64,000 nt of DNA from Octopus vulgaris. Its lineage: Eukaryota. The notes under the pieces were generated by a model that ran no database searches, was not told where the DNA came from, and saw only the letters and a list, made by a program, of their open reading frames with translations. Positions within the stretch are counted from its first letter, which is position 1, and every line of letters begins with the position of its first letter. The stretch covers positions 42,098,001 through 42,162,000 of the forward strand of contig OX597837.1 in NCBI GenBank assembly GCA_951406725.2. The letters are read 5' to 3'. Below, one piece after another: positions 362-44,908 of the stretch. The translations under genes and the position numbers were made by a program.

Positions 362-665
362 GTGGAGGCACATGGCCTAGTGGTTGAGCAGCAGACTCAT
401 GGTTGAGGGATTGTGGGTTCGAATCTCAGACCGGGCAATGTGTGTGTTTATGAGTGAAACACCTAAGTTCCACGCGGCTCCGGCAGAAGGTAATGGTGAA
501 CTTCTGCTGACTCTTTCCCCACAACTTTCTCTCACTCTTTCCTCCTGCATCTTGCAGCTCACCTGCGACAGACCAGTGTTCCATCCAGGTGGGGAACCTT
601 ATACACCAAGGAAACCAAGAAACCGGCCCTTATGAGCCAGGCATGGCTCGAGAAGGAACAAACAA
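362..665 (+). mobile_element. tRNA-derived SINE (family D-related)
   Basis: A box TGGCCTAGTGG and B box GGTTCGAATC. The 3' part (cctgcgacagaccagtgttccatccagg...gaaaccggccc) resembles the 17590-18099 copies. AACA tail. Confidence 0.8.
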
Positions 666-7709: not shown

Positions 7710-7783
7710 TGTATGTATGTATGTGTATATATACATACGTACATACATACATATATATATTGAAGAAGAATAGGTTCCTTTAA

Positions 7784-8003
7784 CCCTTTAGCATTCAGAT
7801 TACTGTGTCAAATGCAATTCTCATTTATTCACAATGTTTTGGGTTAATTATGCGACATCTTGTAGCATCAAGGTTTCAAATATATGACTGTTTATTTTTA
7901 GAATGATATTCTAGGGTAGATGTGAGAAACCAGATCTGACCAGTTTGAAAAAAAAAACAGGTTGATATTTTGACCAGATGTGGCTGGTTTAAATGCTAAA
8001 GGG
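7784..8003. mobile_element. TTAA-type (piggyBac-like) MITE, family 1, 220 bp
   Basis: TTAA|CCCTTTAGCATT ... AATGCTAAAGGG|TTGA. Related pieces at 10560-10735, ~20890-21551 and 42692-43335. Confidence 0.8.
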
Positions 8004-9171
8004 TTGAAAGTTCCCAAGGCCAAGTGTTGGGCTTAACTTTGGTAACATATTAAGCTTACAACCTAGAACAGAAATGATCCCTCCAGGAAGCTTCCACACG
8101 GTTTTGGTTAACCAAATTCCACTCACAAATCTTTGGTTGGTCCAAGACTAAAGTAAGACACTTGTCCAAGGTTATGCAGTGGGATGAAACTAGGAATTAC
8201 ATGGTTGCAAAACAAACATCTTAACCAGAGAGCCAACCATAAATTGGCAGCAAGCCTTTTAATTATTATTAGCAACGAAGCCATATGAAAATACATAAGT
8301 AAATAAATAAATAAATACATACATACGAGCATGTCTGAAACTATATACTGGGGCTGAGCCAGTCTATATTCCTATGATGATAGTGCATATTGATAATGTA
8401 GAGCTGATCTAGATGTTTTATAGCCAGATATAAAAGATTACTATCTCATGTTTCTAACCTCAGATCCTGCAGGGGTCAACTTCACCTCATCTCCTTCCAT
8501 TCAGTTGATAAAACTATGTAGTTGCAACATCTTATCATTGATGAGTATATTGACTCTACTCATATATAAATATATTATATACACTGCTCATAAAGAAAAA
8601 ATAAAATTCCTTGTGATCAATGTAGAAATCAATATTAGCTGATATTCCTAAATGTTTCAAATATGTTTGTTATTCATACTGGGATCAATATGTTAGGTTA
8701 TTTAGATTGCTGGTCATTCTATATTCATAATAATGATCCGAAGTCTATGTTGGATGAAGCTCCGACAAGACAACATTGATTTTACAGGCATTTAAACAGC
8801 AATTTCATTAGCAGTCGCAGCACGAAGTCTAGTTTGCTATGGCCTGTTGTGCTTAAATATCATGCATCATCAAAACGGCCGTGAGGGAAAAGGACCGCAG
8901 ACTGGTACTCTGCATACTAAATACATATGCATTAAGATCTCCTACTTAGGTAATACAGTGAATTAGAAAATTGCAATTAACCAAGATTATTCATGTAGTC
9001 AAAAAGACAAAGACTTCCTCTAAGTCGTTTAACCCTTTTGATATCAATCTACCTGAGTCCACCCTTAGTTCTCTAATATAGATTTATCCCTTCAAGGTGA
9101 TCTTTATCTTAACATCCACTTTTTCATGCTCATATGGGTCGGACGATATTTATTGAGGTGAATTCTCTACA

Positions 9172-10559: not shown

Positions 10560-10735
10560 CTTATCTTCAAATCAGCCACAGCTGGCCTCTCACACATACT
10601 CTACAATGTCATTTTAAAGATAAACAATCACATCATTGAAATCTCAAAGCCACAAGACAATGCATGATTAATTTAAAACAACGTGAATAGATAGGCATTA
10701 CATTTGACAAAGCAATTTGAATGCTAAATGGATAA
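10560..10735. mobile_element. Partial TTAA MITE family 1 (empty-site paralog for the 42821 insertion)
   Basis: Contains ctacaatgtcattttaaagataaacaatcacatcattgaaatctc with a single CACATCATTGAA, and ends aatgctaaatggataa. Confidence 0.75.
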
Positions 10736-15266: not shown

Positions 15267-16764
15267 CAACTGAAAAAGAAAATTTAGCAGCAAAGGCACA
15301 ACGGCAGAGAGAAGGACAGGCAACTGAATCAGATGAAACCAGGGCAAAGTGACTGAAACACGCCTGAATATCCACTGAGGTGTAGACATAATTCTGTTTC
15401 CGTTACACACGATTGACTGGTTAGGGTATCACAAGAGGAGAATATTCTCTTGAATGTAATAATGGTGGCAGATTACAAATTGATGCAACACTAAACAAAT
15501 CTTTTCTTTGCGATAATGTGGAAGTGGTGGAGTTGACAACCAATCAAAGACTTCTTACGGAAGGTCATTCTGATGAAAGAGAGTTTGCTAATTACCTTCT
15601 CGATGTAGGAAACGGTAACATTTCTGTGAATTCAAAATCAAACTACCTAATGACCCTTGCCTTGAAAGGGGTACTCTTTCAGATTTATGTGATTTTGTAT
15701 ATGCTGGGCCTCAAAAATAACTTCACAAACCCTGTGTGGCTTGCAAATTGAACCATCGTGACCCCAACAAATGAAGCAGCACAATTTGTGAATGATTTTC
15801 TGTTGACCAGGATCCCTGGTGAGCGAAAAATATACAGAAGCTCAGATACAGCTGATAAAGAAACTCTGTACTTAATTGAGTTAGTCAAAAAACTTACACC
15901 ACCAGGGTTTCCACCACACATTCTCAAACTGGAAAAAAAAATGATGCATAATGGCGCAGGGGTGGCTGTGTGGTAAGTAGCTTGCTTACGAACCACATGG
16001 TTCCGGGTTCAGACCCACTGCGTGGCACCTTGGGCAAGTGTCTTCTACTATAGCCTCAGGCCGACCAAAGCCTTGTGAGTGGATTTGGTAGACGGAAACT
16101 GATAGAAGCCCATCGTATATATGTATATATACATATATGTGTGTGTGTGTGTGTGTATGTGTGTGTGTGTTTGTGTGTCTGTGTTTGTCCCCCTAGCACT
16201 GCTTGACAACCGATGCTGGTGTGCTTATGTCCCCATCACTTAGTGGTTCGGCAAAAGAGACCGATAGAATAAGTACTGGGCTTACAAAAGAATAAATCCT
16301 GGGGTCGAGTTGCTCGACTAAAAGCGGTGCTCCAGCATGGTCGCAGTCAAATGACTGAAACAAGTAAAAGAGTAAAAGAGTAAAGAGAGTAATGGACATT
16401 GCAATGGCATGTACTACATCACTGTCAGTTTACATGATCATGCTATTGAGGTTGGGGTTGCTTCTGGTCCTTATGCAAGATCAACTCTGCTAATCCAAAG
16501 AATACCACATGTATCTCAAGGAATGGAATTTCCATTTTCATTTACATGCAAACAATTTCCTGTCAAGTCAGCTTCTGCCTTGACGTGCAACAGGGCACAG
16601 GAACAGACTTTTGAACAAATTGGAAATATATCTTCTGACACAATTCCTCTCACATAGTCATCTGTGCGTTGCGTTATCCGGAGTTCAAAAAGAAAATATT
16701 GGCTGAGAGAAATGGAAACAATATGATTACTGACAATTGTGTCTACAAGGAGATACTACTTTAA
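15267..16764 (+). mobile_element. Helitron RepHel remnant (Pif1-family helicase C-terminus), degraded and SINE-interrupted
   Basis: Motifs include LTTNQRL..EFANYLLDVGNG, IVTPTNEAAQFVN, PPGFPPHILKL, NGHCNG, IQRIP, FPFSFTCKQFPV..ALTCNRAQEQTF, IYL..FLSHSHLCVALSGV and the terminal TDNCVYKEILL*. A charged repeat, ATEKENLAAKAQRQREGQATESDETRAK, starts at 15267. Confidence 0.9.
15953..16390 (+). mobile_element. SINE family A inserted in the Helitron helicase
   Basis: Full head ggcgcaggggtggctgtgtggtaag through tail gactgaaacaa(gtaaaaga)n. Confidence 0.9.
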
Positions 16765-20370: not shown

Positions 20371-21027
20371 ACTGTTTTGTTTGTTTTAATATTTAGTTTA
20401 CGGTGGGGCTGGGGTGGTGGGAGAAGTGTGCTAGACGAGGAGTGCGAAGAAGAGAGTGGTGGGTGGGGTGGGTGTGCACGAGGGGAGGAGAGGATAGTTT
20501 GTTATAAAATTAAAAATTAACATCCATTAATGTTTCATGATTTCAGCTAAAAATTCCAGTTGATTAAAAGAGACATTTAAGCTGACATTTAAAATGGTAT
20601 TTTTAAAAAAAAAAAAATTCTTTATTGTTTTACATGCCTTGTTCTCCATTTAATAATACAAAAAAAAAAAAAAAATTATAGCCACTATCATTTATACACA
20701 CATACACACACACAACACACACATGCAAACATATACACACACTCTGACATACATATATTCAACAGCACAGCTTGAGATACAGTATGATATCGCGATGAGC
20801 CAGCAGGGGTACCTCTATGAGGGCATTCCACCTACTAGAAATAGAAGCCAAATCTCCCTTAAATTACAATTTCTTCATTTGATTTTAGGGTTTGAAGTAG
20901 CTATATCGGCCCATATATTCTACCTGTTTCATATTCAAACTGGCCAGATTCAACCCCTTGCACCTACCCTACAATGTCATTCTAAGAGTAAGCAGCCATT
21001 GCCATTAAACTCTTGAAGCTACAAGAT

Positions 21028-27469: not shown

Positions 27470-27610
27470 AGAAATTTCCCCAAGACACCTGATGAAGGCT
27501 GGAGGATATATCAGCCGAAATGTTGTGTTAACAACAAACAAGATGAGGATAAATATCCCTCAAATGTAAATAATGTACATAATTCCTCATCTCTTAAATT
27601 ATAGAACTGT
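27470..27610 (+). mobile_element. Single arm of the hammerhead-bearing Penelope-like repeat (family of 42821-43255)
   Basis: Aligns with 43115-43255, including the end aattcctcatctcttaaa.tatagaactg. Confidence 0.85.
27485..27528 (+). ncRNA. Minimal type-I hammerhead ribozyme motif
   Basis: ACAC-CTGATGA-A-GGCTG-(10 nt)-CAGCC-GAAA-TGTT-GTGT, with a C>T change in stem III. Confidence 0.7.
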
Positions 27611-28344: not shown

Positions 28345-28812
28345 ATAGTTTCCAATATTGAAAAATGCCATTCAACAGAATTTTTGTTTTTTTAAATAGT
28401 AATTTTAGAAAGTGTTAAAATTTCTTTTCTTTTTTTTTGTTTTTGTTTTTCTCTGTTGCGAATAAAAATTCGTAAAATTTTATTAATCTTTTAGAAACAC
28501 AACTTAATTGATTCCTTTAATTAAATTATAGCTTACATCTGAAGAGAGAAAAAGTGAAACACAGTTCACAATGGATTTAAAGGGAAATTAAAAACAAAAA
28601 CAAAAATTTCAACAAAAAATATAAAATAACAGCAGAAAACGACAACAAATGATAAACCTAGGTCGCTTAGGCATTTTGTATTAATTTAGAAATAAATAAG
28701 ATTTCATTTGGAAATTGAAATAAGGTTGTATTTACTTACTGTGTTAAACCTGTTAATCCAAAAATTGAGACATAAGCTAAGAGGACAGCCTGGAAATAAA
28801 ATAAAGAAAATT

Positions 28813-42468: not shown

Positions 42469-42867
42469 GATTATTATTATTATCATATGGAAATTTCTGT
42501 TGTCACAAAATATGTGATGCTTGAGTATTCATTCACGGTGAGGGGCAGGCATGGCTGCGTGGTTAAAGAAGGTTGCTTTTTCACAATGTGTCCTGTCTTT
42601 GCTCTTAAAAGACAGTAGGCTGTAATTTGAGGGACATTTGGCTGCTATGTATGCAACAGCTTCAGCAACCATCATTATTACTCGTTATTAACCCTTTAGT
42701 GTTTAAACCAGCCATAACCAGCCCAAATATTCCGTGTGTTTTATACTAAAACTGACCAGATCCAACCTCTTGTACCTACCCTACAATGTCATTCTAAAAA
42801 TAAACAACCACATCATTGAACATTATTTACATTTGACAGATATTTGTCCTCATCTTGTTTGTTGTTA

Positions 42868-42911
42868 ACACAACATTTCGGCTGATATACCCTCCAGCCT
42901 TCTTCAGGTGT
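42868..42911 (-). ncRNA. Minimal type-I hammerhead ribozyme motif
   Basis: Minus strand ACAC-CTGAAGA-A-GGCTG-gagggtatat-CAGCC-GAAA-TGTT-GTGT. Confidence 0.7.
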
Positions 42912-42963
42912 CTTGGGGAAATTTCAAACCTGAGTTCTCATTCCTAAGGTATTTTTCGATGTC

Positions 42964-43018
<55 letters not shown>

Positions 43019-43046
43019 CAAGTTCGATTCCAGGCAGTGACTGAAT

Positions 43047-43082
<36 letters not shown>

Positions 43083-43131
43083 TTTGAAAAATACCTTAGG
43101 AATGAGAACCCAGATTTGAAATTCCCCCAAT

Positions 43132-43175
43132 ACACCTGATGAAGGCTGGAGGGTATATCAGCCGAAACGTTGTGT
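43132..43175 (+). ncRNA. Minimal type-I hammerhead ribozyme motif, canonical core
   Basis: ACAC-CTGATGA-A-GGCTG-gagggtatat-CAGCC-GAAA-CGTT-GTGT. Predicted cleavage is after GUU (43171). Confidence 0.8.
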
Positions 43176-44908
43176 TAACAACAAACAAGATGAGGACAGA
43201 TATCTGTCAAATGTAAATAATGTAAATAATTCCTTGTCTCTTAAATATAAAACTGCACATCATTGAAATCTTGAAAGTAGGAGATAATGCATGATTAATA
43301 AGGTAAGTAAAAAAAACCATTACCTTTGACAAGGTGGTAACCTGGTGCAATTGTAACTATGCCAAACACAATGCTGAGGAGCATTTTTTTTCCAGGTCTT
43401 TACATTCTCAGGTCAAATATCACCAAGGTTGACTTTACCCTTTCATCTTTACAGTTTCAATAAAAGAAGTACCAGTTGAATACTGGGGTTGATGCAATCA
43501 ATCAACTCCCTTCCCCTTAAAATTACTCCCCTTATGCCTAAAATTAGAGAGGATTATTACTCACTGTTGTTTTTTTTTTTGTGGCTGTCAGATTTTCTTT
43601 AGCCCTCCGTCAGCTCTGACCATGCAGACTTGAAATCATGAGCAAAAGCATTTCAGCCATGACCATCCTGTCTTTCTTATTTCTATACACAGACTATATT
43701 TTCTTTGAGGTCTCCTTTCTTTACATAAACCAGTAGCTAGCTGATAATGTAAGGGAAAGTTGGTTGCTATTTCTAGCAAGTTGAATGGCCATATGAGGGC
43801 ACTTCTCTTTGTGGGTGTTATAAATGTGGTACCGAGTTCTTTGGTGAAAAGCAGCATTTCCAATCCAGTTTTAATTTGCAATAATTACTTCGCTCAGCTG
43901 CTACTGTCTCTAAGAAACTGCACAAGCATCCAGTTTCCTATGTCAATCCTTTCCTCTAACTTATAATTCCATCCCACCGAAAAAAAAAAAAAAATAAATA
44001 ATTTTCTGCTTATGTAACAATAGAATAAAATTTTAAAAAATCATCATCATCATCATCATCAATTATTATTGTTATTATAATTATCAGTATCAACCTCTTC
44101 CTAATTATAATCAATACCGTCATCATCATCACTGACTCCACTGCCATTGTCATCAACACCCACACCATCATCGTCAATACCACCATCACCACCACCACCA
44201 CTACTACTGCCATCACCACTACCACTACCACCACCACCACCACCATCCTCGCTGCCACCGCCACCTTTATTACATTATCTACTTTTAACTGAATTCAGTC
44301 AGATCCTTTCCTTTCCTTTCCTTCTTAAATTTATTTAAGCACTGGAATACTTTCCTCTCAAACTGTCAAATCTTTCCCTTCCCGCTTCAGTGCTGCACTG
44401 TCTTTCTCTCTTCTTTCACTTCACACCCTGCTGCCGCCCACCCACACTCTCAGATCTACACCACATACACACACATAAACACGCGCACGCGTGTGTGTAC
44501 ATATGTGCGCACGCGTGCACGTACACGTATACACCTTTGTATGAAAACGCTATTATTAAGTGCTAAGACGTGTTCAGGATTGCCATGAAAGGCCATATGA
44601 AATAATTGAATTATCTGAAAGCTTGTCAACAATGATTATAAATTTCATTTCTTGTCAGATTCCATTCTTGAAGAAAATAGATTCACTGAACAAAAATAAA
44701 AACAAACAAACAAAAACAAACAAAAACAAACAAACAAACAAACAGTCGAATGAATAAATAAATAAATAAATAAATAAGAATCCATTAACAGAATAATTTG
44801 ATTTAGCCTTTCTGATGCCTTGTCAGTTTATATTCCCGTCCTCTGAAAAGGCAACTGTTGCCGCCAAATCTGTTATTCAATGCAATGGGATTCTCGATGG
44901 ATTTCCAC

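Follow-up and report, generated by a model that had tools for sequence, protein, structure and literature searches.

A palindromic double-hammerhead insertion in Octopus vulgaris is very probably a truncated Penelope-type retrotransposon with a tRNA-derived module

Background

tRNA-derived SINEs combine a head at the 5' end that resembles a tRNA and has A and B boxes with a 3' part that comes from a retroelement. Schistosome SINE-like repeats with hammerheads are a comparison case among them (PMC5993326, available in part). An inverted 5' copy, a tail of 30-40 nt and junction palindromes are typical of Penelope elements, according to the accessible parts of Craig 2021 (PMC8557442) and Arkhipova 2013 (PMC3846280). 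The minimal hammerhead has low activity as a dimer, and hammerhead pairs on opposite strands 100-700 bp apart were considered probable truncated PLEs (Cervera and de la Pena 2014, PMC4209133). The Poseidon protein of the green anole nicks and extends both strands in vitro, its reverse transcriptase (RT) starts at two internal sites bounding the tail, and the protein requires the first 172 nt of the ORF on the template; the Poseidon hammerhead cleaves only with the protein and is dispensable for insertion in vitro (Frangieh 2024, PMC11167929). The inverted 5' copy, the tail, the duplication and the minimal hammerhead are already published Penelope features.

We analysed a window of 64,000 nucleotides (the whole stretch of DNA considered here), in which the initial annotation had described a palindrome at 42809..43267 as a distinct non-autonomous SINE- or retrozyme-like unit. 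The comparison with related copies makes it very likely that the palindrome arose when an abundant Penelope/Poseidon-type retrotransposon inserted in 5'-truncated form, with the inverted second copy, the tail and the 12-nt duplication that are usual in its family. The locus is unremarkable as a member of its class, and 'truncated Penelope insertion', not SINE, is the annotation it should carry.

Anatomy of the locus

The features of the locus are as follows (pLTR, terminal repeat of the element).

42809..42820, plus strand: target-site duplication, left copy, 12 nt (family duplications mostly 9-16 nt, mode 12)
42821..42964, minus strand: inverted pLTR arm without tail, ending at about arm position 141-144
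42868..42911, minus strand: left minimal hammerhead, 11 core bases kept, stem III CpG changed from C to T
42965..43017, minus strand: (AAT)n of the inverted copy, reading as (ATT)n
43015..43042, plus strand: 3' part of the tRNA-derived module (positions 46-72 of 75), B box at 43022-43031, A box gone
43044..43082, plus strand: (AAT)n of the direct copy
43083..43255, plus strand: direct pLTR arm, the 5' end of a Penelope-type ORF, ATG at 43102, one stop in the window copy
43131..43176, plus strand: right minimal type-I hammerhead within the ORF start, predicted cut after 43171
43224..43255, plus strand: 'tail' of about 32 nt, right arm only (Craig 2021, available in part; Frangieh 2024)
43256..43267, plus strand: target-site duplication, right copy
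42688..43299, plus strand: host MITE copy split by the insertion, right end decayed
27471..27610, plus strand: second copy of the arm, solo, 5'-truncated, with tail

Alignment confirmed the inverted arms, the (ATT)n and (AAT)n tracts and the core with the B-box-like GTTCGATTCC (43022-43031) at the places given by the initial annotation. With the microsatellites counted in, the arms (42820-42999 and 43044-43223) are 93% complementary over 180 nt; the unique arm parts, 42820-42957 on the minus and 43086-43223 on the plus strand, are 94.9% identical over 138 nt. The arms had been taken as equal, but the right one extends about 32 nt further, to 43255.

The 12-mer CACATCATTGAA flanks the palindrome at 42809 and 43256 and occurs once, at 10629, in a MITE paralog, as had been reported; the chance probability of this 12-mer at a given place is 1.3e-7. 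When the flanks are fused across one 12-mer, they align to the paralog (about 10586-10672) without a gap at the site, which upholds the proposed single-event insertion of the palindrome, the empty site being known from this paralogous MITE copy and not from an allele at 42809..43267. An intact copy of the host MITE, having 17-nt terminal inverted repeats that begin with TTAA-like sites, lies at 7779-8008; other copies in the window are at 20884-20998 and 10586-10672. Another insertion of the window's Penelope family into the same MITE family was observed in locus L006.

At the centre of the palindrome, the first four nucleotides of the module remnant (ATTC, from 43015) fit both copies and form a microhomology junction. 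The 435-nt unit is predicted to fold into one hairpin (-255 kcal/mol); the built-in dsRNA that had been suggested is thus predicted, but it merely follows from the inverted form that insertions of this kind usually take. Because the window copy has neither an A box nor ORF sequence beyond the tail, it was most likely dead on arrival.

No Rfam family reached the gathering score across the 64-kb window. At the locus itself no hammerhead or tRNA family was seen at E<=10, the only matches being sub-cut-off, hairpin-driven ones to miRNA models; no hammerhead or tRNA family was seen at E<=10 in one family copy (L046 2000-2400) either. ARAGORN found no tRNA in the 64-kb window.

The parent element

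When the right arm was searched against the genome, 40 scored candidates yielded 41 matches; 30 loci were taken. In most of these 30 loci the arm is preceded by all or part of a 75-nt module and (AAT)n, and in L017 by coding sequence. The EN-region DNA of L017, used as a query, yielded 30 loci in which the order is mostly EN, a spacer of about 27 nt, module, (AAT)n and arm. In 29 loci collected with a 5' ORF query the arm lies directly upstream in most cases, and the module is upstream of the arm in five (L271, L276, L292, L293, L296). The repeating unit is a tRNA-like module (75 nt), (AAT)n, the ORF, a spacer of about 27 nt and the next module, in partial tandem. The ORF contains the hammerhead in its first 70 nt, then the RT, then a GIY-YIG-like end. 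The arm, (AAT)n and the module core form the pLTR of this autonomous element, and the arm is the first 51 codons of its ORF.

At about 2.6 kb, locus L062 is nearly full length; it has an inverted arm at the 5' end as well as a target duplication. RVT_1 scored above the Pfam cut-off in L062 and L061, and the EN region of L062 aligns to the Pfam GIY-YIG region of protein P0066 (E 2e-13). Pfam gave no match on the EN fragments themselves or on the N-terminal fragments, which are short. The translated arm resembles the N-terminus of the full-length relative P0019 (847 aa), and its frame is open in L128. P0019 is among the closest relatives (P0001-P0022), whose identity is 55-69%. The family thus has an RT with a C-terminal GIY-YIG, a pLTR lying over the ORF start in partial tandem or inverted arrangement, a tail of 30-40 nt and a minimal type-I hammerhead. 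An extra zinc-finger-like motif in the RT-EN linker is a feature of Neptune and Nematis in the available part of Craig 2021 (PMC8557442); by inspection against that definition, the linker translation contains none, in keeping with the Penelope/Poseidon clade.

These observations bear out the suggested mobilisation by Penelope-like machinery: the arm is contiguous with the RT and GIY-YIG-like ORF of the family and occurs both after the EN region and at the ORF start, the ends at which the initial annotation had proposed to look for it. The unit had been described as non-coding, but in origin the arm is a retroelement ORF start, which one stop breaks in the window copy. No intact copy was found, and the ORF is broken in every long copy inspected. 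Other RT-like long open frames lie beside Penelope copies at L061:4398-5282, L061:8635-9900, L062:8710-9900 and L063:110-2017.

As a same-host control, an unrelated Penelope protein was used as a query in the same genome; all 30 loci taken belonged to the window family, and no other Penelope family was found among them. In 60 blindly placed 10-kb stretches (600 kb) there were 12 loci with 17 arm, 8 module and 3 ORF segments, which extrapolates to about 56,000 loci in the 2.8-Gb genome (Poisson 95% range 29,000-98,000). The 13 arms of this blind sample differ from the majority by a mean of 6.7% at non-CpG sites.

The (AAT)n tract has often grown into a long microsatellite and received secondary insertions (L011, L020, L023, L024, L037, L057, L059); since it expands and takes in other repeats, the family seeds microsatellites and landing sites. 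Four loci of the set L045, L048, L049, L053 and L065 are nearly identical, with common flanks and the same deletion in the arm; they are apparently segmental duplications and were counted once.

Candidate hammerheads

The right hammerhead has stem I of 4 bp, stem II of 6 bp and a palindromic stem III, CG. A complete hammerhead had been claimed for each arm. This is correct for the right arm, in which all stems pair, and not for the left one, where the C-to-T change at the stem III CpG makes the same pattern fail.

Conservation over genomic copies is no test of hammerhead function, whereas cross-species comparison is informative. Among 80 related loci from metagenome contigs, 34 contain the ORF end and at least 400 nt downstream. 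The same hammerhead core with different yet paired stems was found in 12 of these 34 (including two near-identical pairs), while the antisense control gave 0 in the 34, with 0.0 expected from shuffles. The minimal type-I hammerhead is therefore real as a motif, and its cleavage is predicted from the sequence. Within the genome, the 11 core bases are intact in 75 of 126 arms, and in 38 the stem III pair survives as well. Non-CpG change is 2.4% in the core against 4.1% in the rest of the arm, the pattern being mixed by base.

In a read-through transcript from either strand the antisense arm would come first; folded into a single hairpin of about 180 bp, such a transcript is predicted to bury the ribozyme. 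The two window hammerheads lie on opposite strands, and thus no cis dimer is possible. The pattern CTGA-N-GA...GAAAC also occurs at window positions 15570-15613 and 28539-28560 without evident stems, probably by chance.

Inverted shape and insertion

The shape of the insertions was considered in 57 arm-anchored loci (59 minus two duplicates). An inverted arm is present upstream in 39 of the 57, and in 37 of these 39 it stops at arm positions 138-150. The direct arm ends at about position 173, and the duplications are mostly 9-16 nt. The palindrome centres vary among loci, with short microhomologies at the junctions, so the palindrome does not replicate as a unit.

With the tail set on the right, intact head-to-head junctions gave 15 matches of the 2-nt loop: six GT, two AC, six AT (ambiguous after CpG decay) and one AG. 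Fold-back of the tailed cDNA alone predicts only the AC loop. At L297, the copy without a tail reaches 1.9 kb into the ORF, whereas the tailed one begins exactly at module base 1. This junction geometry favours two separately primed cDNAs. The two fixed arm ends and the duplication of about 12 nt fit priming at a staggered cut, and the two-strand nicking and the two internal RT starts seen in vitro (Frangieh 2024, PMC11167929) support such a scheme. The endonuclease would cut the two strands about 12 nt apart, and RT would start at two internal RNA sites, at arm 138-150 and at arm ~173, which would yield one tail-less and one tailed arm. Both cDNAs would then extend to the RNA 5' end, often at the module start, and join at a short self-complementary stretch; in the window copy this stretch may have been ATTC, with most of the module lost. 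On the other hand, the uneven centres and the GT loops could result from later deletion or spacer inversion within palindromes.

A further point against the two-cDNA scheme is that derived non-CpG changes common to paired arms number 24, against a shuffled mean of 11.2 (maximum of 300 shuffles, 21). Such an excess would be expected from a common template, but equally from a common subfamily. At N7, the free position of the hammerhead, 31 arm pairs read TT, 7 AT and one AA, which fits independent templates, although recurrent mutation would give the same pattern.

The tRNA-derived module

In the majority module both boxes are perfect, the A box at 8 and the B box at 53 (tRNA numbering), and the cloverleaf fold of its stems is lost. 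The tRNA-type box of the initial annotation stands as far as the B box is concerned, whereas the A box, perfect in the family majority, has been lost from the window copy. Among 27 distinct host tRNAs, which come from 30 loci and do not form a complete set, Arg matches the module best (z 7-8 against shuffles). ARAGORN with a lowered threshold called one of three module copies. A pattern combining A and B boxes, which recognises 30 of 30 host tRNA loci, was found in 14 of 26 family loci. Among 34 relatives it scored once, where chance would give 1.4, and the match in that relative, L185, lies in flanking DNA without a hammerhead. A first, stricter pattern missed the family's own box (0/29 in the control), hence its blanks were void and it was replaced. 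Mutation among copies is similar in the A and B boxes and in the rest of the module (4.7% and 5.4%). In 12 loci chosen by the module, (AAT)n follows in all 12 and the arm after it in nine, with no other body observed. Window positions 366-440 contain another SINE-like head of tRNA type, which has both boxes and aligns to the module with a score of 62; it is possibly a relative of the module's source.

Anchored loci contain 67 module segments, and 32 of these reach +3 or beyond. Their ends fall at -8..+3 in 26 cases and at -14..-9 in four, and two run into the ORF. In the blind sample, two of the four segments reaching +3 run into the ORF. A native hairpin is predicted over -14..+10 (-11.6 kcal/mol).

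Three raw RNA-seq runs labelled as the same species cover the pLTR deeply. Between 68 and 73% of reads continue into unlike sequence, and the depth is equal on both strands. No site where many molecules start or stop and no pile-up of read ends was seen in the three runs. Loose ends cluster at -7, arm ~141 and arm ~173-175, that is, at the three boundaries of genomic copies. Since the reads run on and the strands are equal, these data represent read-through of scattered copies and are silent on start, cleavage and editing. In L051:1780-2100, run X21 has several linked variants at about half of RNA reads that are near zero in the X15 DNA contigs, which points either to strong transcription of a single ORF-bearing copy or to a difference between species.

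TTTT shortage in the ORF

The ORF majority, derived from a multiple alignment of 62 segments, is an open frame of 783 codons without TTTT. The shuffle means are 4.1 for base shuffling (P 0.014) and 2.6 for synonymous codon shuffling (P 0.04). Reference-anchored majorities contain one TTTT, with P 0.04-0.37, and suffer from thin coverage or broken frames, so the multiple-alignment majority was preferred. In 30 family copies (44 kb) there are 15 TTTT, or 0.34 per kb. Related ORFs were compared, with the same way of counting, in 62 loci with a span of 1.2-3.2 kb, 18 of the 80 being excluded by length; they have 5.0 TTTT per kb, and only one of the 62 has none. For the 35 of them with T<=0.25 the figure is 2.8 per kb. 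Some relatives are also T4-poor, e.g. L162 with one TTTT in 2346 nt.

Alternative explanations

The perfect boxes, the concentration of module ends at -8..+3 and the lack of TTTT bear on how the element is transcribed. Tentatively, and judging by sequence features, this may be an autonomous coding Penelope with a captured tRNA-type promoter: Pol III would transcribe the whole unit, the ORF would have been purged of TTTT, and the short copies would be paired-primed reverse transcripts of the RNA 5' end. The module at the head of each unit would make the template RNA, whose start would be mapped by the short copies, and the avoidance of TTTT would let Pol III read the 2.7-kb unit into the next ORF start. 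The intact boxes in a module with decayed stems point in this direction, as do the 26 of 32 ends together with the loose-end cluster at -7, the TTTT frequency far below that of relatives, and the occurrence of the A and B box pattern in many family loci but, beyond chance, not in relatives. However, the native hairpin could itself halt RT or seed joining, the boxes mutate as fast as the remaining sequence, two of four blind segments pass into the ORF, and RNA-seq has no common start or end site and equal strands; moreover, one family is one data point, several relatives are T4-poor too, and the translation of an uncapped Pol III RNA is unaccounted for. A passenger origin of the module has about even probability: a SINE head of the host would have landed in the 3' end of a master copy and been amplified with it, transcription being by Pol II and the hairpin causing the 5' pile-up. 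The alignment scores of the module, 62 to the head near 366-440 and 63 to host tRNA-Arg, agree with that, and Penelope pLTRs were reported to have Pol II-type promoter motifs (Arkhipova 2013, PMC3846280, available in part). Against a passenger speak the perfect boxes over decayed stems and the T4 shortage across the ORF; moreover, none of the junctions has the 2-nt bulge expected from extension to -14. Pol III read-through would account for boxes, 5' pile-up and lack of TTTT, while a passenger head with the hairpin accounts only for the first two; because of the latter, and because T4-poor relatives exist, Pol III transcription is regarded as doubtful. It extends the truncated-Penelope explanation and does not exclude it.

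An independent non-autonomous SINE or retrozyme family, with the palindrome or the module plus arm as its unit, is improbable. It would agree with the excess of short over ORF-bearing copies in the blind sample (17 arm and 8 module segments against 3 ORF segments) and with small internally deleted units, including three insertions with different flanks and one common ORF-start/module junction. However, the autonomous element accounts for all parts of the palindrome (module, (AAT)n and arm), the centre junctions vary by locus, the module never precedes another body in the 12 loci picked by it, and the short copies lack the ORF stretch required on the template by the anole Poseidon protein. A distinct SINE or retrozyme is for these reasons not supported. 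As for the tRNA-derived SINE class in particular, the A/B-box head exists in the family majority, but it is part of the autonomous unit rather than of a family of its own. The internally deleted mini-units (L327, L328, L329, L330, L331), of about 370-400 nt, consist of the arm, the first ~106-122 nt after it and the module; L327-L329 (= L005, L029 and one more) have different flanks and one junction, and L330 and L331 have similar, independent junctions. They are the nearest thing to a true non-autonomous, retrozyme-like subfamily. The initial annotation had also named the possibility of a DNA transposon (MITE) with the arms as its terminal inverted repeats, and the inverted ends and the target duplication speak for it. 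The probability of this reading is negligible: the ends differ by about 30 nt, duplication length and centres vary, and the arm is continuous with the RT ORF.

Implications

Many of the approximately 56,000 family loci would receive wrong tRNA-SINE or MITE labels. The family copies bear on the origin of Penelope inverted ends and tail, as their fixed ends, stagger of about 12 nt and junction geometry can be compared with the anole Poseidon in vitro system. If the Pol III promoter works, this would be a coding retrotransposon with a SINE-type promoter, blurring the divide between SINEs and autonomous elements; if Pol III does transcribe it, how the element's RNA gets translated becomes a question.

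Comparison with known systems

A literature search found no description of a Penelope pLTR with a module that derives from a tRNA or is of Pol III type; Repbase, Dfam, subscription journals and supplements were outside its scope and may hold the element. The available parts of two cephalopod repeat papers (PMC13282606, PMC8967140) do not contain the word 'hammerhead', those of a retrozyme preprint (10.64898/2026.07.22.740005) contain neither 'tRNA' nor 'polymerase III', and those of PMC7229834 mention tRNA only with regard to ligases and general background. The 75-nt A/B-box module, the 5' ends at the module and the TTTT-free ORF majority, which together suggest Pol III, were not found in print.

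The closest system is the Penelope/Poseidon clade (anole Poseidon, PMC11167929; Adineta vaga Pen2a, PMC3846280, available in part). The window family is like it in having one ORF with RT followed by a GIY-YIG-like domain, a pLTR overlapping the ORF start, a minimal hammerhead in the ORF start, an inverted 5' copy, a one-end tail of 30-40 nt, duplications of ~9-16 nt and junction palindromes. It differs in the tRNA-derived A/B-box module and (AAT)n in the pLTR, the 5' ends at the module and the nearly TTTT-free ORF. The type-I hammerheads of metazoan PLEs (PMC4209133) have the same CUGANGA/GAAAC-GUH core, palindromic stem III and extra base before stem II; there is no essential difference, cleavage being predicted in the octopus element.

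Non-LTR retrozymes, in the available text of PMC7229834 and bioRxiv 10.64898/2026.07.22.740005, are likewise non-coding, hammerhead-bearing, PLE-derived and 170-400 nt long. However, they form head-to-tail tandems giving circular RNA, whereas the window locus is head-to-head with hammerheads on opposite strands, and was therefore rejected as a retrozyme; only the rare deletion units L327-L331, which include the tandem mini-units, resemble them. Compared with tRNA-derived SINEs, the head here is owned by an autonomous element, the window copy is without an A box, and no separate SINE consensus was found. The Cassandra, Helenus and Ajax TRIMs (Kojima 2024, PMC10886601, whose available part does not mention 'Penelope') also contain sequence derived from a small-RNA gene in the terminal repeat, but these are non-autonomous LTR elements.
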